Origin: an uncultured virus (IMG/VR IMGVR_UViG_3300020312_000001)
Lineage: Duplodnaviria > Heunggongvirae > Uroviricota > Caudoviricetes > Crassvirales
Strand: one strand, 5' to 3'
Virus record (IMG/VR): IMGVR_UViG_3300020312_000001
Length of the DNA: 64,000 bases
Shown: positions 1 through 35,663 of the stretch, piece after piece
Numbering within the stretch: position 1 is the stretch's first letter
How the letters are laid out: each line of letters opens with the position of its first letter
Made by a program: the position numbers and the translations under genes
Notes under the pieces: model-generated
Told to the model about the DNA's origin: nothing
The model's input: the letters and a program-made list of their open reading frames with translations, nothing else
Database searches by the model: none

Positions 1-586
1 CGCTGAAATCTTTGAATTTTCTAAGACTATGCGACCTCTTACATTGGTAAGGTGTATCTAATCTTACAATAGATCCTTCATAACCCACGTCTAAGTTGGC
101 TTTGTGAACATATTTAGCACAAGCCTCATCAGGACATGGCATAGTTTGTACGTGCTTAATACACCAATTACCAATTAGATTTTTACTAATCCAATTGTCA
201 CGTGTACTAAACTTCATCTTTTTATTTACAATATCATAACAATGAAATTGCACATTTAGACGTGATTTTAGACGATCCTCATCAGTTGGTTTTGTTTTTC
301 TGACCATAGATATAATTTCCTCAAAATTATCCCTAAAATCATGATTATATAACTCACCGTCTAATACAACATTCGGGTTATTTATAAAGAAAGGTTTTAA
401 TTCTCTCAATATGTGGTCGATATTCTTCCACACCTTACCTGTACGTGAGTACGCTGTTACCACGCCTTTGTCATACTGTATTAAGCATCTAACACCATCT
501 AATTTTGGTTGTATAAATACTGGTTTACTATAATCTATTGGTTTTGCGCTTACTGGGTAAGCTAACATTGGTTTATTCCTCATCAT
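1..586 (-). CDS. lig: ATP-dependent DNA ligase (N-terminal part; runs off the left edge of the window)
   Basis: Not in the ORF track. Manual translation gives MMRNKPMLAYPV...FIQPKLDGVRCL (KxDG adenylation motif) ...AYSRTGK...VLDGELY...FHCYDI...KRSHSLRKFK. The frame is open to position 1. Confidence 0.9.
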   Translation of the reverse strand, partial: MMRNKPMLAYPVSAKPIDYSKPVFIQPKLDGVRCLIQYDKGVVTAYSRTGKVWKNIDHILRELKPFFINNPNVVLDGELYNHDFRDNFEEIISMVRKTKPTDEDRLKSRLNVQFHCYDIVNKKMKFSTRDNWISKNLIGNWCIKHVQTMPCPDEACAKYVHKANLDVGYEGSIVRLDTPYQCKRSHSLRKFKDFS

Positions 587-857
587 TTTCTAAATTTGTT
601 AAATCAGAATCAATAGATATATTTAATTTATCTGTTAATTCCATTATTCTTATTTTCATTATAGCACATTTTTCGTACTCTTCACGATCTAAGTATAAAT
701 TCTGAAGGGTGACACAGCGTGCTAACTCACCTATAATGTGATCTCTAATGTTCTCTTCTATCCAATCTTCAGCATTAGTGTCTTTAGCCAAGTGTATTAA
801 TTCTTCAGCTATAAATTTACCTAATCGTTTTAAATTTTCATCACGTATATTATCCAT
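573..857 (-). CDS. hypothetical protein with UVR-like motif
   Basis: 94-aa ORF; 'REEYEKCAIMKIRI' resembles the UvrB/UvrC (UVR) coiled-coil motif. Confidence 0.6.
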   Translation of the reverse strand: MDNIRDENLKRLGKFIAEELIHLAKDTNAEDWIEENIRDHIIGELARCVTLQNLYLDREEYEKCAIMKIRIMELTDKLNISIDSDLTNLENDEE

Positions 858-869
858 AAGTTATCGTAT

Positions 870-1307
870 TTAATCTGTGTAGTATTTCTTTAGTAAATCT
901 CTAGGTTTTCCTACAAATATACATCCTTCACCATCATCAAATATACTAATCCATATACCTTTATTATAGTCACCCCACACGTAATAATGGTAATCTATCC
1001 ACCCATGTGTGCCTCTATCTTCAATATATACATTACCTGGACCATCTTTTAGTTCAGCTACTATTGAAGCAGCTAAACAACCTAATCCAGCGAATACATA
1101 ATCAGGGTCATCTTTACTTGATATCCCATTAGTTATTTTCATATCATCAAGATAAGATGCTAATGTCACACCTAATCCTTCAGGATATCCATCCCAGTGG
1201 TGGTAAATGTCCACAATTGTCTTATCTGGAATCTCACTAAACGATACTCCTTCCTCACGTTTAGCTACACTTATCATTGCTCTTGTTGCCATATTATTTC
1301 CATACAT
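870..1307 (-). CDS. phage hypothetical protein (YxHxDGYP type); start may be 1292
   Basis: Contains 'IYHHWDGYPEGLG'; tightly packed in the minus-strand gene run. Confidence 0.7.
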   Translation of the reverse strand: MYGNNMATRAMISVAKREEGVSFSEIPDKTIVDIYHHWDGYPEGLGVTLASYLDDMKITNGISSKDDPDYVFAGLGCLAASIVAELKDGPGNVYIEDRGTHGWIDYHYYVWGDYNKGIWISIFDDGEGCIFVGKPRDLLKKYYTD

Positions 1308-1404
1308 TTATTATTGCTAATATAAAAATTATTATATAAGCTATTACTACTGATGGTATGCTTAACATACCGCTATCACTCATTACTTCCCAACCCATAT
1401 CAAC

Positions 1405-1686
1405 TTAATCTAATAAAATCATATAAGCTTTAGCATTGTTTACTTTAAACCAATCTAAACCTTTATAAAGATCTCTAGTTATTTGCTCTATTTTATCGTT
1501 AGGTTCTATTTTATCTTCAAAAGCTTGTTCTAAAAATATATTAGCCCCTATAATAAAATCATAAATACTAAGCTCTAAAGCGTTAAGTTTATATGTTTCT
1601 CCACTAAATGGATTTCGTACAGTTGTACCTCTTTTATACAACTCTCCATCAAACCACTTGGGTTTTACTTGCTTTTTCTTACTCAT
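1405..1686 (-). CDS. phage hypothetical protein
   Basis: 93-aa ORF overlapping its upstream neighbour by 8 nt. Confidence 0.7.
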   Translation of the reverse strand: MSKKKQVKPKWFDGELYKRGTTVRNPFSGETYKLNALELSIYDFIIGANIFLEQAFEDKIEPNDKIEQITRDLYKGLDWFKVNNAKAYMILLD

Positions 1687-1912
1687 TTGTTAAAAATTTA
1701 TCACCCCACAGTAAATCTTCTTGTTGAATATCAATGATTCTTATGTGAGAGTGTATTACTACTGACCTTATATCACCTATAGTTAACTCGTCCCAAGAAA
1801 TAGTATTCTTAAGTTTTTCTTTAAGAGCTTTAGTTGTATAAGGATACTCTTGTTCATCTGCATTTATACTCGCCAGAATATCTGGGTTGAGTTTATCATA
1901 TATTGTTTTCAT
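1679..1912 (-). CDS. hypothetical protein
   Basis: 77-aa ORF; ATG is 5 nt downstream of the repeated GATAATA motif. Confidence 0.7.
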   Translation of the reverse strand: MKTIYDKLNPDILASINADEQEYPYTTKALKEKLKNTISWDELTIGDIRSVVIHSHIRIIDIQQEDLLWGDKFLTNE

Positions 1913-1939
1913 AAATATATTATCTTACTTTATTCGTAT

Positions 1940-2059
1940 TTAATATGTGTTCACTAAGTCATCATAGTGACACTCTACTTCTCTTTGTTCTCCAGCTGAT
2001 AATTCAGCATATTTCTTACCGTATTCTAAGTAAGCTATTTCATCTCTTAAGTTAGTCAT
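1940..2059 (-). CDS. small hypothetical protein (39 aa)
   Basis: Manual translation MTNLRDEIAYLEYGKKYAELSAGEQREVECHYDDLVNTY*; fills the gap downstream of the ncRNA candidate. Confidence 0.55.
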   Translation of the reverse strand: MTNLRDEIAYLEYGKKYAELSAGEQREVECHYDDLVNTY

Positions 2060-2077
2060 GTTATATATTATTAGTTA

Positions 2078-2689
2078 GCAGCTCGGGGAGGAATCGAACC
2101 TCCCACTTCGTCAAGCAACTATAGCGAACCACTAAACTAGCATAATAACGCCGTCGCTAAGCCATTTCAAGCTGTTGTGAACCGTAGGTGTGGTCCCATC
2201 AAGGCCGAGTAGTTTAAATTTAGGTCAAAACCCAAATTGGTCAACGTCTGACTGGAGATTTCGCTCCCGCTCATCTTGAATCGCTTTATCCTACATTTGT
2301 GAGCACTAACTAAATCGCCCGACATCTCACATTACCACCTAGTTCACTGAGTTGTAGTTATTCATCTGTAATACTCGTGGTATTATACACCTTTTCCAGG
2401 CAGAGTACTCGTCTTTCAACTCATTTGATAATTATCAGTTTCAGTTATGTCTAAACACTTCTTACTTACATCTCCAACCACTTGACGGTTATTATCTCTG
2501 GAGACTACGAGTGAGGGTGAAGCGTTCTAGGTTATTCACACTTTTAGTTAACAACGCAATCCCACTCGCATTTTGAATATAAAGCTGTGCACATTTTCGT
2601 GAATTGTCGCTTTATACTCACCCTATACAGGGTTTATAAGGCTTTTCTGCGCATTCGGTAGCTATCAGTATCGCCTTATGTTTAGCTGA
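2078..2689 (-). ncRNA. large (~610 nt) structured non-coding RNA candidate with tRNA-like 3' end
   Basis: No ORF in the track, more GC-rich than its flanks, many nested complementary segments, terminal T-arm GGGAGG-TTCGATT-CCTCCC and acceptor-like helix CAGCTTG/CGAGCTG. Confidence 0.7.
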
Positions 2690-3070
2690 TTAATTCACCT
2701 CCGTCGACGCTTCATCGTCGTCACTTTCATCAGCTACGCCAAATAACTTCTCAACATCATGTATGATTTGCTCATATAAATCAGCATGGCTTTCAAATTC
2801 TATGTTCTCTAAATACACTTTATTATCATATTCCATACCCATTTCGACATTGTAGTTGTCAGATTGGCTAAAATCAAAGTTTTCCACACTATTTTCTATA
2901 GCTCTATGCAAAGCATCAAATTGTTTTGGAGTTAACTTTGGCTTATCACAATCCTCTAATCTTTGTGTAGCGATCTTCAAATCGTGATTTAAATCTTTTA
3001 CTTGTTCCTCGTGGGCTTCAAGTGAAACTTTTAGTTTCTCTATTTCTTTATTTAATTCTTCCTTGTTCAT
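2690..3070 (-). CDS. coiled-coil acidic hypothetical protein
   Basis: 126-aa ORF with an N-terminal heptad pattern and an acidic tail. Confidence 0.7.
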   Translation of the reverse strand: MNKEELNKEIEKLKVSLEAHEEQVKDLNHDLKIATQRLEDCDKPKLTPKQFDALHRAIENSVENFDFSQSDNYNVEMGMEYDNKVYLENIEFESHADLYEQIIHDVEKLFGVADESDDDEASTEVN

Positions 3071-3071
3071 A

Positions 3072-3281
3072 CTATTTTAACATTGTACCATAGCCTCTCC
3101 TGCGGAATAATTTAGCGACTTTCGCTGCATCTTCACTAGACATTATCTGGATAGTATTACCCGTCTTGTGGTTTATGACTGGAGCACAACCGTATCTTGA
3201 AACAGTCGAGCAATCTACACAAACTCTAAAGCCTAATCGCAGGCGGCCTTCTGGTATTATTTTATTACATTTACATTTCAT
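3072..3281 (-). CDS. DksA/TraR C4-type zinc-finger-like protein
   Basis: 'CKCNKIIPEGRLRLGFRVCVDC' resembles the C4 finger pattern C..C...IPxxRL......CxxC; the first Cys pair here is CxC. Confidence 0.6.
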   Translation of the reverse strand: MKCKCNKIIPEGRLRLGFRVCVDCSTVSRYGCAPVINHKTGNTIQIMSSEDAAKVAKLFRRRGYGTMLK

Positions 3282-3308
3282 ATATATATTATCGATGAGT
3301 TGTCGTAT

Positions 3309-3542
3309 TTAATTTGTGTCTTCATCTTCATCATCAAATATCTCATCCATTTCTATACTATAACTCATAGTTGAGTCGTTTTCACTTAGCAATCTTATTG
3401 CTACTTGTAAGCCATCTATATATCCACTTTGATATATTGGTCGCTCATAATCACCTAGCACATTAGAGGTTATGGCCATATAATCTTCAGGCGTTAACTC
3501 ATCCATTGCTTCTTGTTCTAGTTCTTTTAATTCTTCTATCAT
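3309..3542 (-). CDS. acidic hypothetical protein
   Basis: 77-aa, very acidic ORF in the minus-strand run. Confidence 0.65.
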   Translation of the reverse strand: MIEELKELEQEAMDELTPEDYMAITSNVLGDYERPIYQSGYIDGLQVAIRLLSENDSTMSYSIEMDEIFDDEDEDTN

Positions 3543-3543
3543 T

Positions 3544-4143
3544 TTAACTTAAATTATAACGGTGTCCGTTGATTATTACTTGTACATCTTCTGGTTCAGG
3601 GTGAACAGGATTAGCATAATGACCATCAAATGGTAAATCATCTTGTTTTCTTTGACTTCTCCACCACTCACCATGTATTTCTGCTACTCTTTTCATAGTA
3701 TATTCACCAACTAAGTTCATTTTACCACTTCTATAGTAGTTTTTTAGTATGTAATTACATAAATATACTACTCGATCTCTATGATTATCTATCATGATTC
3801 GCTCGTTATTGTATATTTTGCGGTATTTACCAGTCCATACTGAACACTCATGGGTATCACTCCACTTGTAATCTTTAACAAAACTAGCTACTTTACGCAC
3901 TCTATTTAGTTGATAACAACTTTGAGAGGCATTATTTTTACCATAAACTACCATTTTACGAACATAACCATTCTTATAAACAGAAAATCTATTGATTTCT
4001 GTGCTACCATTATAGTACATAGTTTTGAATGGTAATTCCCACACTTCAGTTCCTTTACGTTTTTGAAACGGTTTAGTAACTTCTTTTATACCAAGATATT
4101 CAAATACTCGGTATGCTTCTTGCATTGTTTTTACTTTATTCAT
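3544..4143 (-). CDS. hypothetical protein
   Basis: 199-aa ORF abutting both neighbours. Confidence 0.75.
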   Translation of the reverse strand: MNKVKTMQEAYRVFEYLGIKEVTKPFQKRKGTEVWELPFKTMYYNGSTEINRFSVYKNGYVRKMVVYGKNNASQSCYQLNRVRKVASFVKDYKWSDTHECSVWTGKYRKIYNNERIMIDNHRDRVVYLCNYILKNYYRSGKMNLVGEYTMKRVAEIHGEWWRSQRKQDDLPFDGHYANPVHPEPEDVQVIINGHRYNLS

Positions 4144-4327
4144 AATTTTCTATATATATTGTACTATCTTCATGCACCATCCACTGACAATTGCTCACAT
4201 CATGACCTATTTCATGAAGAAAATCTTCTATTCTTTGCTCATCAATGCCCCACTTGTCAATATCATATTGGTAAACCTTACCTTTCATGAAGTCTAATAC
4301 TGTTATTGTTGTTAATCTTTCACTCAT
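4136..4327 (-). CDS. hypothetical protein (start revised to MSERL at 4327)
   Basis: The track's longer start overlaps the 40-aa basic ORF in another frame; the ATG at 4327 overlaps the end of that ORF. Confidence 0.6.
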   Translation of the reverse strand: MSERLTTITVLDFMKGKVYQYDIDKWGIDEQRIEDFLHEIGHDVSNCQWMVHEDSTIYIENYE

Positions 4328-4442
4328 TATTCTTATGTTTTTTCTTTCTAGTATAAGTCTTTTTACTCTTATGAACACGCTTAAATGACGCTAATTTCCA
4401 ATAAGGGTCTCTAGTTTTTATGTCTTTTCTGCGTATTTTCAT
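4320..4442 (-). CDS. small basic protein (40 aa) with ArfA-like C-terminal pattern
   Basis: Manual translation MKIRRKDIKTRDPYWKLASFKRVHKSKKTYTRKKKHKNNE*; ATG is 5 nt after a GATAATA motif copy. Confidence 0.65.
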   Translation of the reverse strand: MKIRRKDIKTRDPYWKLASFKRVHKSKKTYTRKKKHKNNE

Positions 4443-4477
4443 AATTATATTATCTTATACTATTCGTATTTACATTG

Positions 4478-4551
4478 TGATTGAGGTGGGAGTCGAACCC
4501 ACACTCTACAGCTTAGAAGGCTGTTGCTTTATCCAGTTAAGCTACTCAACC
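4478..4551 (-). tRNA. tRNA-Arg (anticodon TCT)
   Basis: Cloverleaf: acceptor GGTTGAG/CTCAATC, D-arm GCTT..AAGC, anticodon arm ACAGC-CTTCTAA-GCTGT, T-arm GTGGG-TTCGACT-CCCAC; CCA not encoded. Confidence 0.95.
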
Positions 4552-4650
4552 ATTACATATTTAAGTGACAATCCACTTGATCTTCTAAGTAACTTGCATA
4601 GTAATCATGCATCATTTCATTATATTGCTCATCTGTTAAGTTATCGTAAT

Positions 4651-4920
4651 TCATTTTTTAAGTAATTTATTAATTAAACCATCTGCTATTTTATCATTTT
4701 TAATACATAGCAATTCACCACATTTTTCATATTCTTCAGTATTCTCGTAGAAAGATATCACTTCATCAATATCTTGAGTAGTCATATCATATGGATTTCC
4801 ATAAAACATAGCGTCTGTTCCTTCGTATTGGTCAAGAATATCTTCTACTGAACACTTATTTGTCAATACTCCATACGTATTGCTCATTATTATTTCTATA
4901 TCTATATTCATTTTAGTCAT
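4651..4920 (-). CDS. hypothetical protein with UVR-like motif (start probably 4911)
   Basis: 'ENTEEYEKCGELL' matches the EEYEKC motif of 573..857. Confidence 0.65.
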   Translation of the reverse strand: MTKMNIDIEIIMSNTYGVLTNKCSVEDILDQYEGTDAMFYGNPYDMTTQDIDEVISFYENTEEYEKCGELLCIKNDKIADGLINKLLKK

Positions 4921-5188
4921 TTTTTGGACGATGGTGATGGCAAAGCTCGCTTTCGTGCTTGGTTTTTAACTTACATCTCACATTTGTTCCATTCGTGAAC
5001 GAGATACATTGATGAGAAATATACTTAATCTTAGTAGTATCTCCACCGTGATATCTACATTTATCACCATTAGTTACCATTATTTTGCATTGCACCTTCT
5101 TGCTAGTAGTTCCTATACATCTAATAGTATCTTGCGTGAACGCGAGCGATCCCATCGCTAGTCCAATTATTATAAATTTATTCTTCAT
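4913..5188 (-). CDS. signal-peptide protein with two Cys3His repeats (start revised to MKNKF at 5188)
   Basis: Signal-like N-terminus MKNKFIIIGLAMGSLAFTQ, then two C-x9/10-C-x8/10-C-x2-H repeats. The track's longer start overlaps a tRNA-like element. Confidence 0.7.
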   Translation of the reverse strand: MKNKFIIIGLAMGSLAFTQDTIRCIGTTSKKVQCKIMVTNGDKCRYHGGDTTKIKYISHQCISFTNGTNVRCKLKTKHESELCHHHRPKND

Positions 5189-5202
5189 ATTATTATATTT
5201 AG

Positions 5203-5303
5203 TGGTGATGGTGAGAATCGAACTCACTTTAACCTTTATCACCTATACTCATTCGCATTATTTATAAGACGCTAAACAAGTGGAACTACGTCTCAAGTCA
5301 CCA
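5203..5303 (-). ncRNA. atypical tRNA-like element (T-arm and acceptor-like helix, no recognisable anticodon arm)
   Basis: Minus strand TGGTGA...GTGAG-TTCGATT-CTCAC-CATCACCA, with internal helix TGAGACG/CGTCTTA. Confidence 0.5.
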
Positions 5304-5340
5304 TTGATTACTCAGCACTTCGTCAATGGTATTTATCGAC

Positions 5341-5592
5341 TTAATCTATTTCATCACAATTCATACAATCTATCATTTCTTGTTCAATTTCTTGAGCTGG
5401 AAAGTAGAAGTCAGCCATTTCTTGTAATAATTCTGGTCCAAACTCTTGGAAGTGATTAATTCCATGCATTAAAGTTGTTCCAAAAATCAACACACCACTA
5501 CACACGTAAGTTATATTTAAACCTACTTTGAATACAACGAGTGCGTAGTGACTAAATGTTTTACCATCGTTGAATTCTACTCGGAACTTCAT
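5341..5592 (-). CDS. hypothetical membrane protein
   Basis: 83-aa ORF with a hydrophobic middle and C-terminal CxxC. Confidence 0.6.
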   Translation of the reverse strand: MKFRVEFNDGKTFSHYALVVFKVGLNITYVCSGVLIFGTTLMHGINHFQEFGPELLQEMADFYFPAQEIEQEMIDCMNCDEID

Positions 5593-5822
5593 TACGAAAT
5601 GTCCTCATTTCTTACCGATAATGGTAGATTATTACTTGAAGTGTAAGACTTGTATTTTGCCCAACAAGCCATTGCTTCTAACTTATCTTTCATTAGCGAG
5701 AACACTTTATCGTGATTATATGTCGCTGTTTTGCCGTTTTTGAACGTCACTTCAATGGTCGCATCTTTACCAACTAGTGATTGTCTCACTACGAATCTTT
5801 TTGACTGAATTACATTTGCCAT
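5592..5822 (-). CDS. small early protein, paralog of 6418..6636
   Basis: Shares KRFVxRxSLxGK...YNHD...CxAKYKSYT with 6418..6636. Confidence 0.8.
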   Translation of the reverse strand: MANVIQSKRFVVRQSLVGKDATIEVTFKNGKTATYNHDKVFSLMKDKLEAMACWAKYKSYTSSNNLPLSVRNEDIS

Positions 5823-5911
5823 AATTATATTCTTTATTTAGTTATTAATTTATTTTAGTTACATTATTATTATCTGTTGCTGTTCGTTTTTATTTTGTGA
5901 CGACTCACAAT

Positions 5912-6235
5912 TTACTTTAGTTTTACTTCATTACCTGAAGAATCGAAATATCTTTTACCACTTTCAAGTATTTCTTGAATCATTTTATCATTTAACTCTT
6001 TAGTTATATCTTTTCCTGTTATTTTATTTATTACTTGCATCGTTTCTACTATTTATTTCGTTAATTACTTTGTCTTGTTTGTCTTTACTTACTCCATATA
6101 TTCTCATGTTATGAAGAACTAAGTTAAGTTGTTGTAAATCTAGTGTTTTTAAATCAATCATTTCTCATCAATTTTAGCTAATTTCTCAGCGATTTTTACT
6201 ACTGTCCAAATTGTCATTATTATTATAAATTCCAT
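5912..6235 (-). other. three overlapping micro-ORFs (6158-6235, 6024-6161, 5912-6040)
   Basis: Manual translations: MEFIIIMTIWTVVKIAEKLAKIDEK*, MIDLKTLDLQQLNLVLHNMRIYG...NK* and MQVINKITGKDITKEL...KLK*. The first starts 5 nt after a GATAATA motif, and each overlaps the next. Confidence 0.5.
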
Positions 6236-6417
6236 ATTATTATTATCTTTACTTATTCGTTTTTAGTTTGTGTAAAAGTAGTAGTTTTGTTTTTGTTATA
6301 ATTATTAGTAACAGTTACTCCGCCACTTCTCTTTGCTTACAATTATTATTTATGTGACATTAGCATTATAAGTTATATTAATAACAAGCAATTGTCACAC
6401 TATTTTATACCGAGATA

Positions 6418-6636
6418 CTACTGGATTTTCATATCTCGGCAGAAAGCTGGCATAGCATTAGTATTAGTATAGCTTTTATACTTCGCGAAACAATTCATAC
6501 TTTCGAATCTTTCTTTGTGAGTATTATACACATCGTCGTGATTATACTTTACTACTTCACCTTTCTTATTTGTGAATGTTATTACTTCGTTCTTGCCTAT
6601 TAAGGACTTTCTTATTACAAATCTTTTTAAAGTCAT
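6418..6636 (-). CDS. small early protein, paralog of 5592..5822
   Basis: First gene of the leftward run; clear paralogy. Confidence 0.8.
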   Translation of the reverse strand: MTLKRFVIRKSLIGKNEVITFTNKKGEVVKYNHDDVYNTHKERFESMNCFAKYKSYTNTNAMPAFCRDMKIQ

Positions 6637-6991
6637 ATTATTATATTTTATTATTATTATTATTTATATTATTATTATCTATTATACTTCGTATTTACTT
6701 TGTAAATTCAAATATTAAAATGTATATTATTATTGAAAATGATAGTATTGATATTAATATATTCATATTTAGTATTTTTAATTTATATATATATTATCTA
6801 TTATACTTAGTATTTACTTTGTGAATAATTTTTGGAAATCAATTTTAGAATTAGAACTTTCAATTACATTTTTAATTACTAAATCAATTGTTTTTATTAT
6901 AAAGAATGCTAGTATCATAGTAGTATATTTTAAATGTTATTATTAATTATTAATTATATATTTATTATCTATGATGAGTAGTATTTAACTC

Positions 6992-7170
6992 GTGGATAAA
7001 TGGATGGAATGGAGGGGAAGGAAATGGGGGTGGGGCCAGGGGGATGGGGTCTGGATGGGGCTGGGGCCGGGGTGGCATGGGGGCCCGGGTGGGGGAATGG
7101 ACTTTTGGGGGGAGGGGGGTCTAGTAGGAGAGAGGCGCAGGGCTAAACCCCAATATTTACAATACGGGGG
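6992..7170 (+). other. G-tract-rich island at the strand switch (potential G-quadruplex)
   Basis: More than a dozen runs of 3 or more G on the plus strand, next to an almost pure A/T tract. Confidence 0.6.
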
Positions 7171-7312
7171 AAATATATGACATACACCTATCTAAGTATA
7201 AGAGTAACCCCTTATTGTCATAGTAAATATCTATAGTACTGTGTAATTATAGAAACTGTAGAAAAGCGACAAGGAGTCGTATAAAAAATAATTAACTTAT
7301 AACAATTTCAAG

Positions 7313-10557: not shown

Positions 10558-12126
10558 ATGGAATACAACTTACCAAGTGAATTGGTGAAAGACCTCGCGT
10601 TTGGAGGTGAAGCCAAAGATAAAGTTATAGAAGGAGTTAATAAACTAGCCCAAGCCGTTAAATCTACATTAGGCGCATCAGGAAAATGCGTTATATATGA
10701 AGATGGGAGAGGCAAGCCGGTCATTACAAAAGATGGGGTAACCGTTGCGGAAAGCGTAGTCTTATATGATCCGGTTGAGAACATGGGTGCTACACTTATA
10801 AAAGAAGCAGCCAGAAACACAGTTAAAGACGCTGGAGACGGAACCACAACAGCTACAGTGCTAGCAGAAGCACTAATCAAGCAAATAGACACTGCGGTCG
10901 CAGATGGTCTTACAATCAGAGAAATTAAAGATGGAGTAAATGAAACACTAGAAGATGTTATTAAATATCTTAATAATATATCTATTGATGTTGAGGGTAA
11001 TATGCTTAAGTCCGTAAGTTCTATATCGTGTAATAACGATAAAGAGTTAGGTAGTATTATAGCGGAAGCATACGATAAGGTTGGTAAAGATGGTGTTGTT
11101 TTAATGGAAGAAAGTGAATCAGAAGATACATATGTTGATATAGTAGACGGAGTACAAATCGATTGTGGTTTAACTTCACCACATTTAGTGACAAATACTG
11201 AAAAACATACATGTGAGTTGGATAAACCTTTAATACTAACAGTATCATCGGAAATACCTAATATTAGAAAAATACAATCTATATTAGAGTATGTTATTAA
11301 AAACAACCGATCTTTACTTATAGTAGCTCCAGTAGCACAATCAGTAAAGTCGGCGCTTATTATGAACAAGGTTAAAGGTAATATTAAAATAAACATAATA
11401 GATCCACCTGGTTTTGGACCAACAAAGAAAGATGCTATAGAAGATTTAGCTATACTAACTGGTTCCACTGTTGTTAATGAAGAGTTAGGTGATGATCTTG
11501 ATTTAATAAAACCTGATTTTCTAGGAGAGGCTGAATTCTCAGTGACAACAGAAAAAGACACTATATTAACTATAGATGGTATGACTCAGAGCATAGAGGA
11601 TAGAATTGATGAATTAAATAGTAAACTAGCTAAAGAAAAAGACGGATTTATAAAAAGAAAATTAGAACAAAGACTTGTTATGTTGTCAGGTAGCGTAGGT
11701 GTTATTAAGGTTGGTGCTAATTCTAAGGTTGAGCTTAAAGAAAAGAAAGATAGAATAGAAGATGCAATATACGCTACAAAAGCAGCATTAAAGGAAGGTA
11801 TTGTTCCCGGAGGTGGAATAGCACTGTTGAATGCATCTCAAAAAATTTCGACCGGGCCAGCCGGTAAAGTATTATTAAACGCTTTGTCTGCTCCATATGA
11901 AACTATTATGAATAATGCTGGGTTAATGATGAATCCCAGTAATATGAAAGAAGGATACGGTTGTAATGTTATAAATGGAACATTTCCTAACATGATTAAA
12001 GAAGGTATAATCGATCCTGTTCTTGTAACTAAATCTGCACTTAAAAATGCTGTAAGTGTAGCGTTAACTATAATGTCAGCAGATTGTGTAATTTCAAATA
12101 TAAGAGTAGAAAATGCAAGCAGTTAA
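10558..12126 (+). CDS. groEL: phage chaperonin GroEL
   Basis: ITKDGVTVA, AGDGTTTATVLA, GFG, GIVPGGG and GIIDP motifs; no C-terminal GGM tail. Confidence 0.97.
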   Translation: MEYNLPSELVKDLAFGGEAKDKVIEGVNKLAQAVKSTLGASGKCVIYEDGRGKPVITKDGVTVAESVVLYDPVENMGATLIKEAARNTVKDAGDGTTTATVLAEALIKQIDTAVADGLTIREIKDGVNETLEDVIKYLNNISIDVEGNMLKSVSSISCNNDKELGSIIAEAYDKVGKDGVVLMEESESEDTYVDIVDGVQIDCGLTSPHLVTNTEKHTCELDKPLILTVSSEIPNIRKIQSILEYVIKNNRSLLIVAPVAQSVKSALIMNKVKGNIKINIIDPPGFGPTKKDAIEDLAILTGSTVVNEELGDDLDLIKPDFLGEAEFSVTTEKDTILTIDGMTQSIEDRIDELNSKLAKEKDGFIKRKLEQRLVMLSGSVGVIKVGANSKVELKEKKDRIEDAIYATKAALKEGIVPGGGIALLNASQKISTGPAGKVLLNALSAPYETIMNNAGLMMNPSNMKEGYGCNVINGTFPNMIKEGIIDPVLVTKSALKNAVSVALTIMSADCVISNIRVENASS

Positions 12127-28910: not shown

Positions 28911-31900
28911 ATGCCAGAAATTAAACACGATTTTTCTGCCGGTAAAATGAACAAAGATCTCGATGAGAGAATTGTTCCCAACGGTCAATATAGAAATGCC
29001 ATAAACGTGCAGATTAGAACAACTAGTTCTGATGGCTCACAGGGTAATGCTGGTACAGTTCAAAACCTACAAGGTAATAGAGAGATTAAACCTGCATCAG
29101 GTTTAAGTGGGGTTAGCTTTGAAAAAGAATATGTTAACAATGTTGATTTCGAAGGAGTAAATGAAAGTAGATTTGTAGGTAGTGTTTTAAATGAAAAAGA
29201 AAACACAATGTATGCTTTTTTAGCTGGACCAAATATAGATTCTATTTTACCATCTCTATCCAATTCTCCATCAGCTATAACGCAACCAAAGGTAATCTAT
29301 GACCACATAATAAAAGTCACTTCTGAAAACACACCCACATACTCTCCTGTTTTTAATGACCTACATGCTTATATAGACACAGGAACTAATGTAATTGACT
29401 CTAATATCGCGAACACTACTCTTGGTGCTGGTTGGAAAGATTTACCGGTCAACTTGGGTATTGTAGATACACTAGTTTCTGGTTACGTTAGACCAGGTAT
29501 GCTTGTTACTTTTTATAATTCTTCTGGAGAAAAATTGATAGAGGATTCAGAAGTATGGGTTGCAAGAAATGCTGTGGGAGGTAACTATATATCATTTTAT
29601 GACGAACAAGAAAGTTTAGTATTAAGTGATGTAAGTTACATTTCTTTTATAGCACCTAGGGTTTTGAGACTTAATAATAAATCACTAATAACCGGTATAA
29701 ATATTATAGATGATTTATTGTTTTGGACAGATAACGAAGGAGAACCTAAAAAAATAAATATAAAAAGATCTATAGCTGGTACACCAGATTTTAAAAATCA
29801 TACTAAGCTAAAATTATCAAATCCAAACGATAGAGATGAACTTTGGGACTTTGTTCAAACAGATGACATTACTCAACCTTTTCACGAAAAACCAACATCA
29901 CCTTCTGTTAACAATTATGTAAAAGAAGAACATATAACTGTTATAAGAAAAGCCCCATTAGTAGCTCCATCTATAGAAATGAAAGATACTGATAGATCAG
30001 GAGAAATATCGGTTAGTGGTTTTATGTTTGATTTTGCCACATATAATGATGATAATTCCTCCATAAGTGTAGGGCAAGTATTTTCTATTCCTCATGCTTT
30101 GGATTTAGATGGTGTCGCTAGTACTTATTCTAACGCAACCACTTCAGAATCAAATGATCCAACTATATTTAATAATCTAAACGTTAAAGAAGGTGATATA
30201 ATTAAAATAACAGAAGAGACAGATGACTTTGATAGTTATTTAAGATGTTTAGTAACTAGTGTTGTGATTAATGATGATGGGTACAAAGTAATATCATTAG
30301 AAGTATTATCTATAAATAAAACTTTACAGCAAACGCAGTATAACACGACTGGTGATACACCAACACCAATAATAGCAGGATCTGGATTTTGGCAATTAGA
30401 ACTAGAACAACCTGATCCTTATTTCGAATTAAAATTTGGTAGATTTGGGTGTAGATATAAATATGAAGATGGTGAGTATTCTAATTATGGACCTTGGTCT
30501 GAGATAGTTTTTTTACCCGGCGCTTTTGATTTAGACCATAAGAGGGGTTACAATGTTGGTATGGCTAACAACACTAGAAGCATAAAAATAAAAGACTTTA
30601 TACCACATCAAAGAGTTAAACCTAATGATATGGTAGCCGTTGATATACTATATAAAAACACTGAATCTCCAAATGTTTATGTTGTTAAAACTATAGCTAG
30701 AGGTAGAGATCCAGAGTGGGATCTTTTTACAGATGCAACAGCTGATGAGTTAAGTGATAAATATAAACAAGTATCACCGGGCTTATTAACTGGTGGTCCA
30801 ACTTTTGGTGAACTATCTATAACATCAGAAATGATACATAAAGCTCTACCTGCTAATCAAACATTAAGAGCTTGGGACAACGTACCATTAGTAGCTAAAG
30901 CTCAAGAAATAGCAGCTAATAGGCTTGTTTATGGTAATTTTGAATTTGGTTATGAAATAAAAAATTCTCCAGGTTTAAAAAGAAAAAGAAAAAATAGACG
31001 TAAAGAAAATGAGAATGGACAATGGGTAACTACTACTTATGATTCTGATAACGTTTATAGCATGCAAGAACCTGGTAAATCTCTAAAATCAATGAGAGAT
31101 TATACTATTGGTATGGTTTTTGGAGATAAATATGGTAGAGAAACACCAATCATATCACCTGGTTATGTAGAAGAACTTATATCTGGTAATCAAACTAGAT
31201 TTAACATAATAGATCCTAATCTAAATATATCAAAAGAAAATGCTCCAAATGCTAATCAATTAGTTTTAGAACAACTATGGGGACAAGATTATGATAGTAT
31301 TCCAGATGATTGGATATCTTATGTCAAGTATTATATAAAAGAAACAACCAATGAATATTATAATATAGTAATGGATCGTTGGTATGAAGCTGAAGATGGT
31401 AATATATGGATATCATTTGCTTCTGCAGATAGAAATAAAATAACTGAGGAAACATATTTAATCTTAAAGAATGAACATGGTTATAATACACCTGTTTTAG
31501 AAAAAGCTAGATACAAGGTTTTAGCTATAGAAAATGAAGCTCCAGATTTTGTAAAAAGAGCTTATAAAAACATGGGTAGAGTTGAGATATCTGGACCTAA
31601 TAATATATATTCATTAGAAGATTATATAATCGATGGATCCACTTATAATGATACTCTACAAATAGCACCTACAAAATTACAAGCGGGAACAAAAATAGCT
31701 ATTGGAGCAGATGCTTGGGGTGGTTTTCTTGATGGTTATGATAATCCTGAAGGTGACTTAGAAATAAGAGTTGTTGGTGTTAGTGGTAATGAAGAATACT
31801 CTCAAGCGGACGGTTGGAGACTAGTAACATATCATCATAAAAAAGAATGTGATCCAGATGACGCTGAATGTGAAGACAATGGTGTTGGTGCTTTAAGATG

Positions 31901-34900
31901 GGATAAACCATTTGGATCAGGAGCTGACATGCAAGAAGCTCTTTCTACTATAATTGGACAAAATCCATTACAAGAATTATACTATTATTTAGATTTTAGA
32001 GAAGTTGTTACTAGAAACCTACCAGAATTTGATGGTAAGTTTTTTGTTAAAATAGAGAGAAACGAATTACTAAAAAACAAAGTTCTAGGTGTAACAGCTG
32101 AGTCTGTAGACTACGATGTAGTTTCTGTATTAGAGACTACTTATATTGAAAATGCTGAATACAACCCTTCAGATACAAACTCAATTGAGAATGCTGCTAT
32201 GCCTAGAAGAAATTACAAGTGGCATAGAAATGATGCTGGTGATGTTTTTGATCCTGGTGATGATAATGGACCTGTTAACGCTGAAACAAATCTTACACCA
32301 GGTAGCATAGTTTCCAATGTAGCTACTAATTGGTTTTGGTGGGATACTAGGTATTGTAGAGGTACATCTGCTGCTGATGGTACTGTAGGTGGGTGTCATA
32401 GTAGGGATGCTGAGTATATGGCTCTTGGTTGTAGTGATATGGACGGTCTTACAAATGGTACCTACATAAATAATCCAGCTGACCAAGATAGAAATCAGGT
32501 GGTTTATAATAGAGCTAAAGAAACAGCGGGTTTTTGGTTATGGTATCGAGGTCAAACTGGTAGTACTGAAGGCGAGGATGCTCATGGTGTTAGACCTTTT
32601 ATAGATGGTTTTAGAGCTTTTAGAACTAAAAAAATAAATGATATTACTAGTTACAATGAGTGGGATAATAGTAACTACGATCAAGATACATGGACGGAAG
32701 ACGGTTCTCCTTATGGTATTGGGAGTGCAACCAATTACTATAAACCAACTGGTATAACACATGGACAATTATCTAGTCCAGCTGGACAACTTGAACAGTT
32801 TGGTCCTACAACTAATACTTTAGGTAGAATGACAATGAGTGTCCTAGGGGCATGGAGTACGGATGAAAACACAAATGAGTGGAAACTAATGGATTCTATG
32901 ACAAACTATGGCACATTATTTAGATTTGCAAATGATCCAAGGGGAGCGATATATAAAGTAGTTAGTGCTTCTAGTGAGATAGATTATTTCCAACATAGAA
33001 ATCACGCTCAACGTGACTCTGATTCACCTGGATTAGATGGTGGAAGTAATTCTTGTGATTGGGGTCAATGGAGTCAAAATACAACATATTGGGGATTTGG
33101 ACAGTTCACGGATGTCGACGATGGCACTGTGTTAGGTGGTTGGGACATGAATCCAAATTACGTGGATAATAATAATGCTGCAACAGCATCAAGTGATAAT
33201 TGCTCGGGAACTCCACCATTGAATTCTCAAGGAATTGAAAATCCCTCTGGTGGAGGAAGTGGGGGTAATTCATGGGTAAATGTTAATTTTACAAACAATG
33301 ATCCACAAAGAATTACATCAGAAAATCCAAATGGCTTTGACTCGGTTGTAAATGGTACTACAGGTAGTGGTCAGATAAAAGCAGGTGGATCTAGTAACGC
33401 TTCATACTGGTGGCATAATACCACAGTTTGTGGACAATGTGGCGATATGTGGTGGTTTGAAGATACATTTGACTCAGTTGGTAATACTGGTGGTAGTGTT
33501 AATGCATTTAGTCAGCCCTGGGCAATTAGATCTTGTGTTAGAAGTAGTTTTACTTTTGAGTTTAGAAGATTTGATCCAACAGTAAATGGTCTAATGAAAG
33601 ATGATGACAATGTACCAGGTGTACTGGGTATAGAAACCGATGTTTGGGATCCAAGAGGATCTGTTTGTCACGACGGTAGAGAACCTATGGATATAGAGAT
33701 ATTAACAGGAACTAGAGTTGGTGGAGAAGTTGTTATACCAACAAAGAATGCTGCTGTTTGGGAAACAGAACCAACGGAAGATGTTGGTTTAGATTTATAC
33801 TATGAAGCTTCAAATGCGATACCGATACATTTAAATAAAGATACTGCGAATACCTACATACCACACGGATGTAGAGTTGATATATTGAAATATGAAAATG
33901 GTACCTATCAAGACGCGGTATCTCCTTTTACATCGGGGGATTTAGATAACGACGGGGCGGTTGATGATCTAGTGACTCTCCCAGGAACGTATTACGTTGA
34001 TCACATTGGTCACACTAGAGATAATTCAGTTATAGCTATTAAAGGTTTGATTACCACGTTAGATGAAGAATCATCTGGATCAATCGTGGATAGTTATTAT
34101 ACTAGATTAATAAATTTCGGTATAGATTTAACAACTGACAAATACGTTAGATTCTACCACCCCGATGGTAGTACAACTATGGCTAAGTTAATAGAACACA
34201 TGATCCCTGAGGACGAACAGGAAGTTGGTGGTGATACAGAAACTAGATTTTTTCCATCCTCAACACAAACAGGTTATTTTAAACTAGATACAGATGTTTG
34301 GAAACTACCAGTTGAGTTAAGTTGGCACAATTGTTATACTTTTACAAACGGTGTAGAATCAGACAGAATAAGAGATGATTATAACGCCAACACTATAGAC
34401 AATGGTGTTAAAGTGTCAACGACATTTATAGATTATGGTAGAGAGAAGAGAAACAGTGGTATGATATACTCGGGTATATATAATTCAACTTCTGGAAAAA
34501 ATAACTTGAATGAATTTAATATGGCAGAGAAGATAACTAAAGATCTAAACCCGTCTTATGGTTCAATACAAAGATTGAAAACAAGAGACACAGATATGGT
34601 TGTGTTAACTGAGGATAAAGTTCTTAGAGTTATAACAAACAAAGATGCACTATACAACGCTGATGGAAACCCACAGTTGTTAGCAACAAATAGAGTGCTA
34701 GGTACCGCTACACCATTTTCTGGAGACTATGGTATATCACAAAACCCAGAATCATTAGCTTGGGATCAATATAGAATGTATTTTACTGATAAACAGAGAG
34801 GTGCTGTATTGAGATTATCAAGAGATGGATTAACACCTATATCAGATGTTGGTATGAAAACTTATTTTAGAGATAAACTTAGAGGTAGTTTCAAAGCATT

Positions 34901-35663
34901 AGGAACATATGATTCAGTTAATGGGGAATATAATTTAACTATCGATGATAACACGACAGTTTCTTTTAATGAAGAATCTAAGGGTTGGGTTAGTTTTAAA
35001 TCTTTTTACCCTCAGATTGGTGGAAGTGTTAGTGGTAATTACATAACAGCTATTAGTAAATCAATTGGAACTAGTGATCCATCTACTGGTATTTTTCATC
35101 ACTACAGAGATTATATAAGTGGGGGTAAGGTGATTAATAGAAATACTTTTTACGCTTTAGATAGTCAATATGCTGCAAACGATTATGGTTTTTATTTCGA
35201 TGGATCGCGTTTAGATTTTTTAATAAATGAATCACCTGGAGATATAAAAGAATTTGTAGCTTTCACCTATGAGGGGTCTCAAGCTAAAATTGAACCATTT
35301 GCTACAGTTGTTAATCAAACACAACCAGATGGTTCTATGTTTAGTAATAACGATATCACAGGTGTTATGGATGGTGAATACTATAATTTAACTAGACAAA
35401 GAGGTTGGAGTGTGTCTCGCATTAAAACAGATAATTCTTCATTTGCTAATTTTAATAATGGTAGTTCTTATTGGAAACAAAAGGAAGGAAAGTGGTATAC
35501 TTATGTAAGAGGTGGAGTTAGAACAAATTATTTAACAGATGAGGAACTAGAGGAATTTAGCGTACAAGGCATAGGTAATAGCATTGCTCCACCATCTTCA
35601 GGGGATAGCGTTGAGAATATAACTATACAAATACAAAACGAAGATGATAACGAATTTAATTAA
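28911..35663 (+). CDS. large tail protein (2250 aa; stabilisation/nozzle-like)
   Basis: N-terminus 'KMNKDLDERIVPNGQYRNAINV' and C-terminal 'YGISQNPES...YFTDKQRGAVLRLS' recall short-tail nozzle proteins; contains large inserted regions. Confidence 0.65.
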   Translation: MPEIKHDFSAGKMNKDLDERIVPNGQYRNAINVQIRTTSSDGSQGNAGTVQNLQGNREIKPASGLSGVSFEKEYVNNVDFEGVNESRFVGSVLNEKENTMYAFLAGPNIDSILPSLSNSPSAITQPKVIYDHIIKVTSENTPTYSPVFNDLHAYIDTGTNVIDSNIANTTLGAGWKDLPVNLGIVDTLVSGYVRPGMLVTFYNSSGEKLIEDSEVWVARNAVGGNYISFYDEQESLVLSDVSYISFIAPRVLRLNNKSLITGINIIDDLLFWTDNEGEPKKINIKRSIAGTPDFKNHTKLKLSNPNDRDELWDFVQTDDITQPFHEKPTSPSVNNYVKEEHITVIRKAPLVAPSIEMKDTDRSGEISVSGFMFDFATYNDDNSSISVGQVFSIPHALDLDGVASTYSNATTSESNDPTIFNNLNVKEGDIIKITEETDDFDSYLRCLVTSVVINDDGYKVISLEVLSINKTLQQTQYNTTGDTPTPIIAGSGFWQLELEQPDPYFELKFGRFGCRYKYEDGEYSNYGPWSEIVFLPGAFDLDHKRGYNVGMANNTRSIKIKDFIPHQRVKPNDMVAVDILYKNTESPNVYVVKTIARGRDPEWDLFTDATADELSDKYKQVSPGLLTGGPTFGELSITSEMIHKALPANQTLRAWDNVPLVAKAQEIAANRLVYGNFEFGYEIKNSPGLKRKRKNRRKENENGQWVTTTYDSDNVYSMQEPGKSLKSMRDYTIGMVFGDKYGRETPIISPGYVEELISGNQTRFNIIDPNLNISKENAPNANQLVLEQLWGQDYDSIPDDWISYVKYYIKETTNEYYNIVMDRWYEAEDGNIWISFASADRNKITEETYLILKNEHGYNTPVLEKARYKVLAIENEAPDFVKRAYKNMGRVEISGPNNIYSLEDYIIDGSTYNDTLQIAPTKLQAGTKIAIGADAWGGFLDGYDNPEGDLEIRVVGVSGNEEYSQADGWRLVTYHHKKECDPDDAECEDNGVGALRWDKPFGSGADMQEALSTIIGQNPLQELYYYLDFREVVTRNLPEFDGKFFVKIERNELLKNKVLGVTAESVDYDVVSVLETTYIENAEYNPSDTNSIENAAMPRRNYKWHRNDAGDVFDPGDDNGPVNAETNLTPGSIVSNVATNWFWWDTRYCRGTSAADGTVGGCHSRDAEYMALGCSDMDGLTNGTYINNPADQDRNQVVYNRAKETAGFWLWYRGQTGSTEGEDAHGVRPFIDGFRAFRTKKINDITSYNEWDNSNYDQDTWTEDGSPYGIGSATNYYKPTGITHGQLSSPAGQLEQFGPTTNTLGRMTMSVLGAWSTDENTNEWKLMDSMTNYGTLFRFANDPRGAIYKVVSASSEIDYFQHRNHAQRDSDSPGLDGGSNSCDWGQWSQNTTYWGFGQFTDVDDGTVLGGWDMNPNYVDNNNAATASSDNCSGTPPLNSQGIENPSGGGSGGNSWVNVNFTNNDPQRITSENPNGFDSVVNGTTGSGQIKAGGSSNASYWWHNTTVCGQCGDMWWFEDTFDSVGNTGGSVNAFSQPWAIRSCVRSSFTFEFRRFDPTVNGLMKDDDNVPGVLGIETDVWDPRGSVCHDGREPMDIEILTGTRVGGEVVIPTKNAAVWETEPTEDVGLDLYYEASNAIPIHLNKDTANTYIPHGCRVDILKYENGTYQDAVSPFTSGDLDNDGAVDDLVTLPGTYYVDHIGHTRDNSVIAIKGLITTLDEESSGSIVDSYYTRLINFGIDLTTDKYVRFYHPDGSTTMAKLIEHMIPEDEQEVGGDTETRFFPSSTQTGYFKLDTDVWKLPVELSWHNCYTFTNGVESDRIRDDYNANTIDNGVKVSTTFIDYGREKRNSGMIYSGIYNSTSGKNNLNEFNMAEKITKDLNPSYGSIQRLKTRDTDMVVLTEDKVLRVITNKDALYNADGNPQLLATNRVLGTATPFSGDYGISQNPESLAWDQYRMYFTDKQRGAVLRLSRDGLTPISDVGMKTYFRDKLRGSFKALGTYDSVNGEYNLTIDDNTTVSFNEESKGWVSFKSFYPQIGGSVSGNYITAISKSIGTSDPSTGIFHHYRDYISGGKVINRNTFYALDSQYAANDYGFYFDGSRLDFLINESPGDIKEFVAFTYEGSQAKIEPFATVVNQTQPDGSMFSNNDITGVMDGEYYNLTRQRGWSVSRIKTDNSSFANFNNGSSYWKQKEGKWYTYVRGGVRTNYLTDEELEEFSVQGIGNSIAPPSSGDSVENITIQIQNEDDNEFN

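Follow-up and report, generated by a model that had tools for sequence, protein, structure and literature searches.

What does a phage genome keep in positions 2078 to 2689 of the stretch analyzed here, 64,000 nt of DNA from an uncultured virus (IMG/VR record IMGVR_UViG_3300020312_000001; hereafter, the window)? This gap is poor in open reading frames (ORFs) and richer in GC than its flanks, on which the ORF listing and the GC content agree (0.39 to 0.44 in windows over 1951-2700, 0.29 to 0.31 just downstream, and 0.33 to 0.37 upstream). The original prediction, made from the letters alone, was of one ornate RNA of about 610 nt on the minus strand, which would end in a tRNA-like module, be possibly matured there, and represent either a divergent member of the large phage RNA classes GOLLD and ROOL or a new class. 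Comparison with homologous loci upheld part of this: the region is a structured, phage-encoded, non-coding region of the minus strand, and the tRNA-like module at its end is genuine, with neither a normal D arm nor a normal anticodon arm. Taken as a whole, the gap is, judging from the sequence comparisons, a mosaic of optional and shuffled hairpin modules, of which only the 3' third is conserved. We give an even chance to the reading that the tRNA-like modules form a family of phage mimics of the top half of tRNA, which would be cut out of their transcripts by the host tRNA-processing enzymes like the neighboring phage tRNA.

The tRNA-like module occupies 2079-2173 (here and below, features lie on the minus strand unless stated otherwise) and consists of a 6- to 7-bp acceptor helix, a 5-bp T stem, and a canonical T loop. 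Its acceptor 5' strand, AGCUUGA (2173-2167), is followed by AAUGG (2166-2162), by a 44-nt hairpin forming a variable arm at about 2161-2118, and by a linker, ...UUGACGAAGUG, which runs to 2104; the T stem GGAGG (2103-2099), the T loop UUCGAUU (2098-2092), and the returning strand CCUCC (2091-2087) lead into the acceptor 3' strand CCGAGCU (2086-2080), the discriminator G (2079), and CUA. The acceptor-like helix had been placed at 2168-2174/2079-2085; the same helix is present, in a register offset by one from the standard tRNA register, and the extra -1:73 pair could form in 50 of 83 distinct sequences but not in the other 33, so that it is no family-wide feature. All other helices that had been listed were likewise located on the minus strand exactly where they had been placed, namely, ATAAGGC/GCCTTAT, TGAGTATAAAGC/GCTTTATATTCA, TGCGAGTG/CACTCGTA, TCTCCA/TGGAGA, TGAGTTG/CAACTCA, TAATAC/GTATTA, GTGAG/CTCAC, GTAGG/CCTAC, AATTTGGGT/ACCTAAATT, and the T arm at 2086-2104.

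Homologous gaps were collected by synteny, with the 126-aa ORF that adjoins the gap upstream (2690-3070) as the anchor. Searches with the two flanking proteins and with DNA patterns taken from the 3' end yielded 8 IMG/VR contigs, and 76 further loci came from scanning metagenomes with an upstream-protein alignment; relatives of the 126-aa ORF, 38 to 99% identical, were found at 81 loci. The module was located by tblastn anchoring on the stop codon of the upstream gene and by a covariance model, R1, whose only strong match in the window was the module itself (76.2 bits, E = 7e-19). A tRNA-like module lay downstream of the same gene in 52 of 85 syntenic loci. Among the 33 loci without it, 28 are contigs that end before the stop codon or within 491 nt of it, and four form a distant group (protein 38 to 41% identical), three of which carry a module upstream of the gene; L075 offers 1,209 nt downstream without a module, and there the 39-aa gene described below follows directly after the stop codon of the 126-aa ORF, with no RNA region.

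Between the acceptor and the T arm of these modules, a D stem or an anticodon stem-loop was never present. The anticodon half is replaced by exchangeable hairpins of unrelated sequence, 17 to 110 nt long and with loops of many sizes, and the segment from acceptor to T arm measures 28 to 118 nt in all (shortest in L013, 28 nt). Around this variable arm the constant parts are a GG placed 4 to 5 bases past the acceptor, a linker YYGACGAR before the T arm, and a T loop UUCGAKU, replaced by UUCAAUU in two sequences. Three types were distinguished by their helices: type 1 pairs AGCUUGA/CCRAGCU with GGAGG/CCUCC; type 2 pairs AGCACGA/UCGUGCU or AGUAUGA/UCAUACU with GUGGG/CCCAC or GUAGG/CCUAC; and type 3 has AGCUAG/CUAGCU, AACUAG/CUAGUU, AACCAG/CUGGUU, or GGAUAG/CUAUCC with five further T-stem variants. 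Nine T-stem variants were counted in the family. The types differ along the entire acceptor and T stems, with pairing kept. In two loci, a type 1 and then a type 2 module stand in tandem with a small hairpin between them (L057, 1142-1328; L033, 1287-1500), an arrangement that resembles tRNA gene arrays; because both types occur together in this way, they are paralogues rather than orthologues.

Covariation strongly supports the tRNA-like module, as far as sequence comparison can tell. When 40 distinct sequences were aligned with MAFFT, 94.5% of cells were paired, double-sided changes affected six pairs, and none of 500 shuffles matched the covariation score. In an alignment fitted to the covariance model (A3), comprising 65 distinct sequences and taking in the third type and a cultured phage, 94.9% of cells pair, compared with 37 to 54% in slid controls, and double changes occur in 9 of 12 pairs (104 cells). 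Both the acceptor and the T helix covary, as does the helix closing the inner part of the adjacent domain D. Moreover, pairing and T loop are kept across lineages whose flanking protein is just 38 to 41% identical. G-U pairs within the module (U5-G68 in 14 of 40 sequences and G6-U67 in 2 of 40), together with the sequence of the T loop, identify the minus strand as the RNA strand.

Immediately upstream lies the second conserved element, domain D (2177-2347), which is pseudoknot-like and about 100 to 225 nt long among loci. It was found in 41 of the 52 module-bearing loci (35 distinct sequences), always 2 to 3 nt upstream of the module (linker ac, aac, or acc); the remaining 11 carry the module without it. 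In the window, its strands are P1 (GUGAAC, 2347-2342/GUUCAC, 2182-2177), S1 (GUGGU, 2338-2334/ACCAC, 2194-2190), and S2 (GUAGG, 2294-2290/CCUAC, 2188-2184), with an inserted hairpin GUGAG/CUCAC at 2333-2298 and an inner variable domain at about 2283-2198, closed by UCAAG/CUUGA and holding AAUUUGGGU/ACCUAAAUU at 2238-2217. The core, GUGAAC-UAG-GUGGU ... AAUGUAGGAUAAAG ... ACCAC-N-CCUAC-R-GUUCAC, is nearly invariant even where the neighboring protein drops to 57% identity, with free variation at the lone N and R that separate the proposed strands. Insertions occur at two places only, as a hairpin after GUGGU and as a 50- to 110-nt inner domain after GGAUAAAGCGAUU, and the latter exists in at least four unrelated versions, each closed by a helix. 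In a plain MAFFT alignment (A4), four of five pairs of the helix closing the inner domain are changed on both sides and 84% of cells pair; in the core, 13 of 16 pairs are invariant, one compensatory change affects GUAGG/CCUAC (L044), and one pair of the closing helix P1 is broken in two sequences. These patterns are compatible with a putative H-type pseudoknot (GUGGU/ACCAC plus GUAGG/CCUAC) within the GUGAAC/GUUCAC helix, and a nested alternative, UAGGUG/CACCUA, is almost as compatible (four mismatched cells versus one). If the GUAGG/CCUAC pairing is real, the core is pseudoknotted rather than nested, as the helices had first been described.

The position of the module is that of a tRNA gene. 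A promoter-like repeat, CACAnnUUAAAUACGA-N9-10-GAUAAUAUA, occurs in about nine minus-strand copies in the window, each just before a start codon, and such repeats are probably phage-specific promoters of the leftward genes; the copy at 1913-1950, before a 77-aa gene, marks the start of the next unit. One copy stands directly past the 3' end of the only tRNA gene recognized here, a tRNA-Arg(tct) at 4477-4551 (ARAGORN), and in 24 of 42 homologous loci, 9 to 13 nt separate the end of the tRNA-like module from the start of the repeat; therefore, the module stands at the end of a transcription unit, as the tRNA-Arg gene does. The window and some other loci have an optional 39-aa gene or extra hairpins between module and repeat. 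In addition, module and tRNA-Arg are both followed by N-C-A/U-A, not by CCA. The repeat, which can also be written CACAnnTTAAATACGA-N9-10-GATAATATA, starts at 6987, 6816, 6697, 6265, 5892, 4472, 3311, 1942, and 872; the three copies at 6697-6987 form a cluster at the gene-block head, and an ATAC-NAA-GTAT mini-hairpin is present in two of the three.

Metatranscriptome contigs from four runs of three studies matched 2279-2505, 2507-2660, 2567-2635, and 2281-2339 without a difference, others represented module variants of relatives, and some crossed module borders (for instance, 2279-2435 and 2318-2505). These contigs fit transcription of the region. No contig of the four runs covered 2078-2131, and 2132-2239 was covered in run X17 alone at low depth, from which no inference was drawn.

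Starting from the observed structure, conservation, covariation, position, and presence in RNA libraries, we infer the following course of cleavage, CCA addition, and release. The RNase P, RNase Z, and CCA-adding enzymes recognize the acceptor/T-arm stack, the T loop, and the GG, and the parts of the module under selection are those that these enzymes read, which is why the module may be cut out like a tRNA. The modular RNA region would be cotranscribed with the small leftward genes and would have a constant 3' end, made of the acceptor/T-arm stack with its canonical T loop and the GG at the D-loop place, with an exchangeable hairpin for the anticodon half. The host tRNA-processing machinery would treat this end like the phage tRNA-Arg gene: RNase P would cut 5' of A1 (window 2173), next to the linker AAC (2174-2176) that separates it from domain D, while trimming by a 3' nuclease and the action of the CCA-adding enzyme would complete the 3' end after G2079. 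Processing would thus end the transcription unit and free a stable tRNA-like RNA of 60 to 140 nt, along with a second product, a structured RNA from further upstream that holds domain D and the optional modules and whose 3' end would be defined. The originally suggested maturation at the tRNA-like end is plausible.

Several observations weigh against this reading. Of 48 scorable cells at position 7:66, 35 are non-Watson-Crick, unlike in ordinary tRNAs, and no CCA is encoded after the module. The 65-sequence alignment, being fitted to the model, leans towards it, and the covariation derives largely from a few deep splits between the three paralogous types, so that independent events are fewer than the cell counts. 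Folding energy was not significantly better than that of shuffled sequences and was not used as support (z = -1.51 on the minus strand, with 1 of 20 shuffles as good, and -1.33 on the plus strand; for 2079-2347, z = -1.71, with 10 of 200 shuffles as good). The RNA-run matches are contigs, which show neither strand, ends, nor processing and may include DNA carry-over. The region is dispensable in one relative, L075, which does without all of it. Finally, a mere processing role would not explain the near-invariant core of domain D.

The alternative that survives best, which we hold only tentatively, places the function in trans: by analogy, the released RNA might serve as decoy or adaptor, engaging a host factor that recognizes the acceptor/T-arm ends of tRNAs, with processing as a maturation step only. 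Candidate partners would be a defense nuclease, a nucleotidyltransferase, SmpB, EF-Tu, or a modification enzyme. Some weight is left to such a role because pure punctuation explains neither the domain D core nor the type-specific acceptors, the tandem copies, and the loop motifs. Distinct acceptor "identities" are kept as separate paralogues, two of which may sit in tandem, and the family is almost confined to viral contigs (one match among 80 bacterial-genome loci scored, out of at least 120 stretches with the spacing pattern of type 3). The variable arms repeatedly carry the same loop motifs, which behave like portable submodules: GUAAACGUUUUCACGAGC was found in arms of type 2 and type 3 modules, and GAUAAAGCGAUUUAGUGGA in the arm of L045 and in upstream domains of L093 and L096. 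Against this, there is no anticodon loop, and hence the RNA could not replace a cleaved tRNA; the proposal is one of analogy. In its most far-reaching form, which we consider unlikely, the modules would be a new class of "top-half tRNA" genes, each combining a type-specific acceptor with a plug-in arm bearing a loop motif, often fused to an invariant pseudoknot domain, enzyme-released, and acting in trans on a host factor that reads tRNA ends, for example, as a decoy against tRNA-directed defense. If true, they would be more than a processing signal, namely, a modular platform made of RNA.

The recurrent loop motifs were also observed elsewhere. The motif GAUA(A/G)AGCGAUUUAGUGGA sits on a short stem and is also the heart of domain D. 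Carriers of this motif or of GUAAACGUUUUCACGAGC include L045 (871-987), L093 (about 100-160), L096 (about 700-760), and the arms of L017 and L092, and further carriers are the arms of L108, L137, L279, and L334, among others.

Upstream of domain D, the gap proved far less constant than a single RNA class of about 610 nt would imply. From stop codon to module end, it measures 187 to 788 nt among relatives (610 nt in the window), the part at 2348-2689 differs between them, L075 lacks the gap, and other relatives have different modules at equivalent places. In the window, the stop codon of the 126-aa ORF is followed by a leader and the 5'-most hairpin, AUAAGGC/GCCUUAU (2636-2689 together; hairpin, 2636-2679), which is seen in the sequence and common only to a near-identical twin of the window (L022), so that it has no comparative support. 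The next module, at 2574-2632, joins a hairpin CCCUGUAUAGGG (2632-2621) to a hairpin GAGUAUAAAGC/GCUUUAUAUUC (2619-2574); this pair recurs in five other contigs (L013/L028, L021, L088, and L089), stands directly before the tRNA-like module in L021, and in that locus shows changes that retain pairing, one-sided only (A-U to G-U and G-U to G-C). A module at 2506-2570, closed by UGCGAGUG/CACUCGUA and containing the inner helices GCGUU/AACGC and GUGAA/UUCAC, is missing from most close relatives; in a distant homologue (L096), GUAAA/UUUAC replaces GUGAA/UUCAC, which amounts to one compensatory pair identified by eye. Within 2348-2505 follow an optional hairpin UCUCCA...UGGAGA (2504-2471) with a conserved tail, GUAAGUAAGAAGUGUUUAGACAUAACUGAAACUGAUAAUUAUCAA, and an optional domain UGAGUUG/CAACUCA (2423-2348) enclosing UAAUAC/GUAUUA; these are common to L002, L006, L014, and others and missing in many relatives. 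Several of the upstream modules look structured on their own. In L096, a 56.7-kb metagenome contig, three consecutive domains precede the tRNA-like module (480-870), each closed by ACGAG-N-GUGGC...GCCAC-CUCGU, and one of them is homologous to the 2506-2570 module of the window.

A single folded ornate RNA of about 610 nt, whether GOLLD/ROOL-like or of a new class, is consequently improbable in our judgment, since the upstream modules come and go among relatives in shuffled order, domain D is missing from 11 of the 52 module-bearing loci, the gap length varies from 187 to 788 nt, and the minimum free energy gives a z score of only -1.5. It draws some support from the modules being contiguous, on one strand, and without promoter-like motifs between them, and from the RNA-library contigs that bridge some of their borders. 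GOLLD and ROOL are phage-associated, occur near tRNA genes, and span several hundred nucleotides with many helices, according to two reports (10.1101/2024.12.08.627333; PMC5737381), and the gap, phage-borne, near a tRNA gene, several hundred nucleotides long, and rich in helices, resembles them in these respects. Neither model matched at E values up to 10, and no full-length architecture is conserved, so that both classes were rejected.

The element matched no Rfam family. Rfam 15 at gathering thresholds found only the tRNA-Arg in the window; with E values up to 10, cmscan (including GOLLD, ROOL, tmRNA, RNase P, and intron models) gave no match of these kinds on 1900-2800, the only hits being Plastid-ycf2 (E = 1.3, plus strand) and DUF2693 (E = 5.6), neither of them anywhere near its threshold. 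The Rfam tRNA model gave no hit on 2079-2173 even at E values up to 10, and ARAGORN called no tRNA for the module of the window or for its syntenic counterparts in the 14 loci scanned; among further R1 matches, it called 0 of 25 and 2 of 27, one of these 2 resembling a true tRNA-Val. The module shares with tRNA an acceptor helix of 6 to 7 bp stacked on a 5-bp T arm with a conserved UUCGAKU loop, a discriminator, a trailer like that of tRNA-Arg, a gene-like position, and sometimes a tandem arrangement. It differs in having no D stem or anticodon stem-loop and in the mostly unpaired 7:66, and a cloverleaf tRNA (RF00005) was rejected for want of a D arm and of a 7-nt anticodon loop carried by a 5-bp stem.

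Could the module still be an aminoacylatable relative of tRNA or tmRNA that enters translation or ribosome rescue? We consider this quite improbable. The canonical T loop, the GG at the D-loop place, the open acceptor end, and a discriminator followed by C-A/U-A would suit it. With tmRNA, the module shares a top half without D stem or anticodon, a helix at the anticodon-stem place, a GG shortly after the acceptor 5' strand, and one or more pseudoknots in the same RNA; the difference is that domain D lies 5' of the entire module, not between its halves. The alanine identity pair of tmRNA is G3:U70. Position 3:70 of the module is C-G in 60 of 65 sequences, U-A in 4, and other in 1; the pairs seen there are C-G, U-A, and A-U, never G-U. 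There is no anticodon arm, and tmRNA (RF00023) was rejected because there is no tag reading frame and the acceptor strands, 60 to 140 nt apart, enclose only a hairpin, a different topology; ARAGORN detected no tmRNA in the window or in eight homologous loci, and the Rfam model none at E values up to 10. Related phages do carry tmRNA and many tRNA genes, according to ARAGORN on the locus of Maribacter phage Panino and the paper describing this phage (PMC11590407).

Least probable of all is the notion that the region consists of functionless decayed tRNA genes or recombination scars, or of small protein-coding genes: it lies where relatives carry tRNA genes, L075 lacks it, and a 52-aa ORF (2167-2325) overlaps domain D, but compensatory changes keep the helices, and the T loop is invariant where the flanking protein is 38 to 41% identical, and the 52-aa ORF, the sole one of at least 30 aa between the 126-aa and 39-aa ORFs, is on sequence grounds not a gene, because it is complete just in the window and its twin and falls into scattered, disconnected pieces in different frames at other loci.

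Among known elements, the closest analogue of the proposed working would be the mascRNA/MALAT1 type. In one article (PMC4919922), tmRNA, phage RNAs, and MALAT1/mascRNA figure as tRNA-like substrates of tRNA-processing enzymes that are not tRNAs, and a tRNA-like fold at the 3' end of the longer MALAT1 transcript is cut by RNase P/Z to give a small tRNA-like RNA and a matured upstream RNA. The likeness is one of arrangement: mascRNA and MALAT1 are eukaryotic nuclear RNAs of unrelated sequence, the module belongs to a phage operon in bacteria, and its cutting is proposed here. The two ends of YrlA pair into its Ro-binding stem, whereas its acceptor-like stem is closed. This bacterial and phage non-coding tRNA mimic has a T arm and an acceptor-like stem (PMC4201824). 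Compared with the YrlA topology, the module differs in its open acceptor end, and no Rfam hit was obtained. The tRNA-like structures of plant RNA viruses are likewise viral imitations of tRNA directly preceded by a pseudoknot domain. Their acceptor arm is itself pseudoknotted, at the 3' end of the genome, and is aminoacylated; the acceptor of the module is an ordinary helix inside the transcript of a DNA phage. Such structures are treated in two abstracts (PMC7749636 and PMC8127992). A hammerhead was rejected as well: the linker CUGACGAG before the T arm is similar to CUGANGA, the first of the two hammerhead core strands, but the second, GAAA, is missing after the T arm in all types, and no Rfam ribozyme hit was obtained. 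Full-text literature searches found no paper describing the element, which is also absent from Rfam 15; one possible place for it is among the 10,006 unnamed candidates of PMC10690425.

Beyond the syntenic loci, a linker/T-arm pattern with five variable bases (5-N), which corresponds to type 3 spacing, retrieved 48 IMG/VR stretches, 32 of which match R1. Types 1 and 2 need six (6-N), and that pattern retrieved 101 stretches, the 80 examined giving 38 matches at an E value of 1e-4, about 34 of them full-length. Family members were found at 52 marine loci in synteny and on about 60 more IMG/VR contigs, which makes the family widespread among uncultured phages. In bacterial genomes, searched with type 3 spacing only (at least 120 stretches, 80 examined), one full-length R1 match was found (L213, 391-476); it lies on a 63-kb contig of a Sphingobacteriales metagenome-assembled genome (MAG), and this contig may derive from a phage or prophage that was placed in the same bin. 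A distant blastn search of 1900-2800 against 50,697 GenBank phage records found no match, and two other cultured or complete relatives had no R1 match. The cultured Maribacter phage Panino gave a weaker one (26 bits, E = 1.3e-4) in an unannotated gap between CDS0022 and CDS0023 (PP540027.1, 4941-5032, equal to L105, 1542-1633), with an acceptor UGUGGGU/ACCCACA, a T arm, a D-like hairpin, and no anticodon arm, at which ARAGORN was silent. A candidate at L009 was rejected as an ordinary tRNA unrelated to the module.

tRNA mimicry is already known from tmRNA, Y RNAs, plant viruses, and MALAT1. What appears to be new here is the occurrence in DNA phages of covariation-supported, anticodon-less tRNA top halves with swappable arms and an attached invariant pseudoknot-like domain. 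The element escapes tRNA finders and is therefore left out of phage annotations, and the match in the cultured Maribacter phage would make the family experimentally tractable. The modules could show how phages end and cut transcripts without classical terminators, or they could reveal a new way of engaging the host tRNA-binding machinery.

As for the surroundings, the gap had been called the only long ORF-free stretch, which holds within the run 1-5822, apart from the gap with the tRNA-Arg; the gene-block head, about 5823-7312, is also mostly non-coding. The 39-aa ORF (MTNLRDEIAYLEYGKKY...; 1940-2059), which lies between the tRNA-like module and the next promoter-like motif, is conserved over its full length (70 to 97% identity) in seven loci besides the window and its twin and appears to be an optional small gene cassette. 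The 126-aa, 77-aa, 69-aa, and 199-aa ORFs match no PHROGs or Pfam family, and among 52 ORFs, PHROGs and Pfam showed nothing tRNA-related except a ligase fragment at 2-586. Besides this fragment, Pfam recognized a GroEL-like chaperonin, thioredoxin, ribonucleotide reductase, thymidylate synthase, and MazG. A 498-aa structural protein matches 85 GenBank phage records with 38 to 45% identity (68 Flavobacterium phages, 15 Cellulophaga phages, 1 Maribacter phage, and 1 uncultured podovirus); therefore, the window was assigned, by sequence similarity, to an uncultured marine relative of the Flavobacterium/Cellulophaga/Maribacter podoviruses.

Other features of the window touch the element less directly. 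The GroEL-like chaperonin (Cpn60_TCP1, E = 3e-56) is encoded at 10558-12126 (plus strand), and the Panino paper (PMC11590407) likewise reports GroEL and GroES homologues in phage. Two giant ORFs, of 3,367 aa and 2,250 aa, lie at 42744-52847 and 28911-35663 (both plus strand) and might conceivably encode a virion RNA polymerase, ejection proteins, or tail proteins. The former has no Pfam match; a guess at an N4-like phage, based on this ORF alone, was discarded, Pfam being silent and the available part of PMC11590407 mentioning no N4 relation. Lastly, a G-run tract of about 145 nt (GGGG, GGGGG, and GGGGGG; 6985-7130, plus strand; GC, 0.45; GC skew, +0.54) is surrounded by a divergent intergenic region of 13 to 30% GC that separates two gene blocks. 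This tract could form a G-quadruplex, and it may mark a genome end or an origin.

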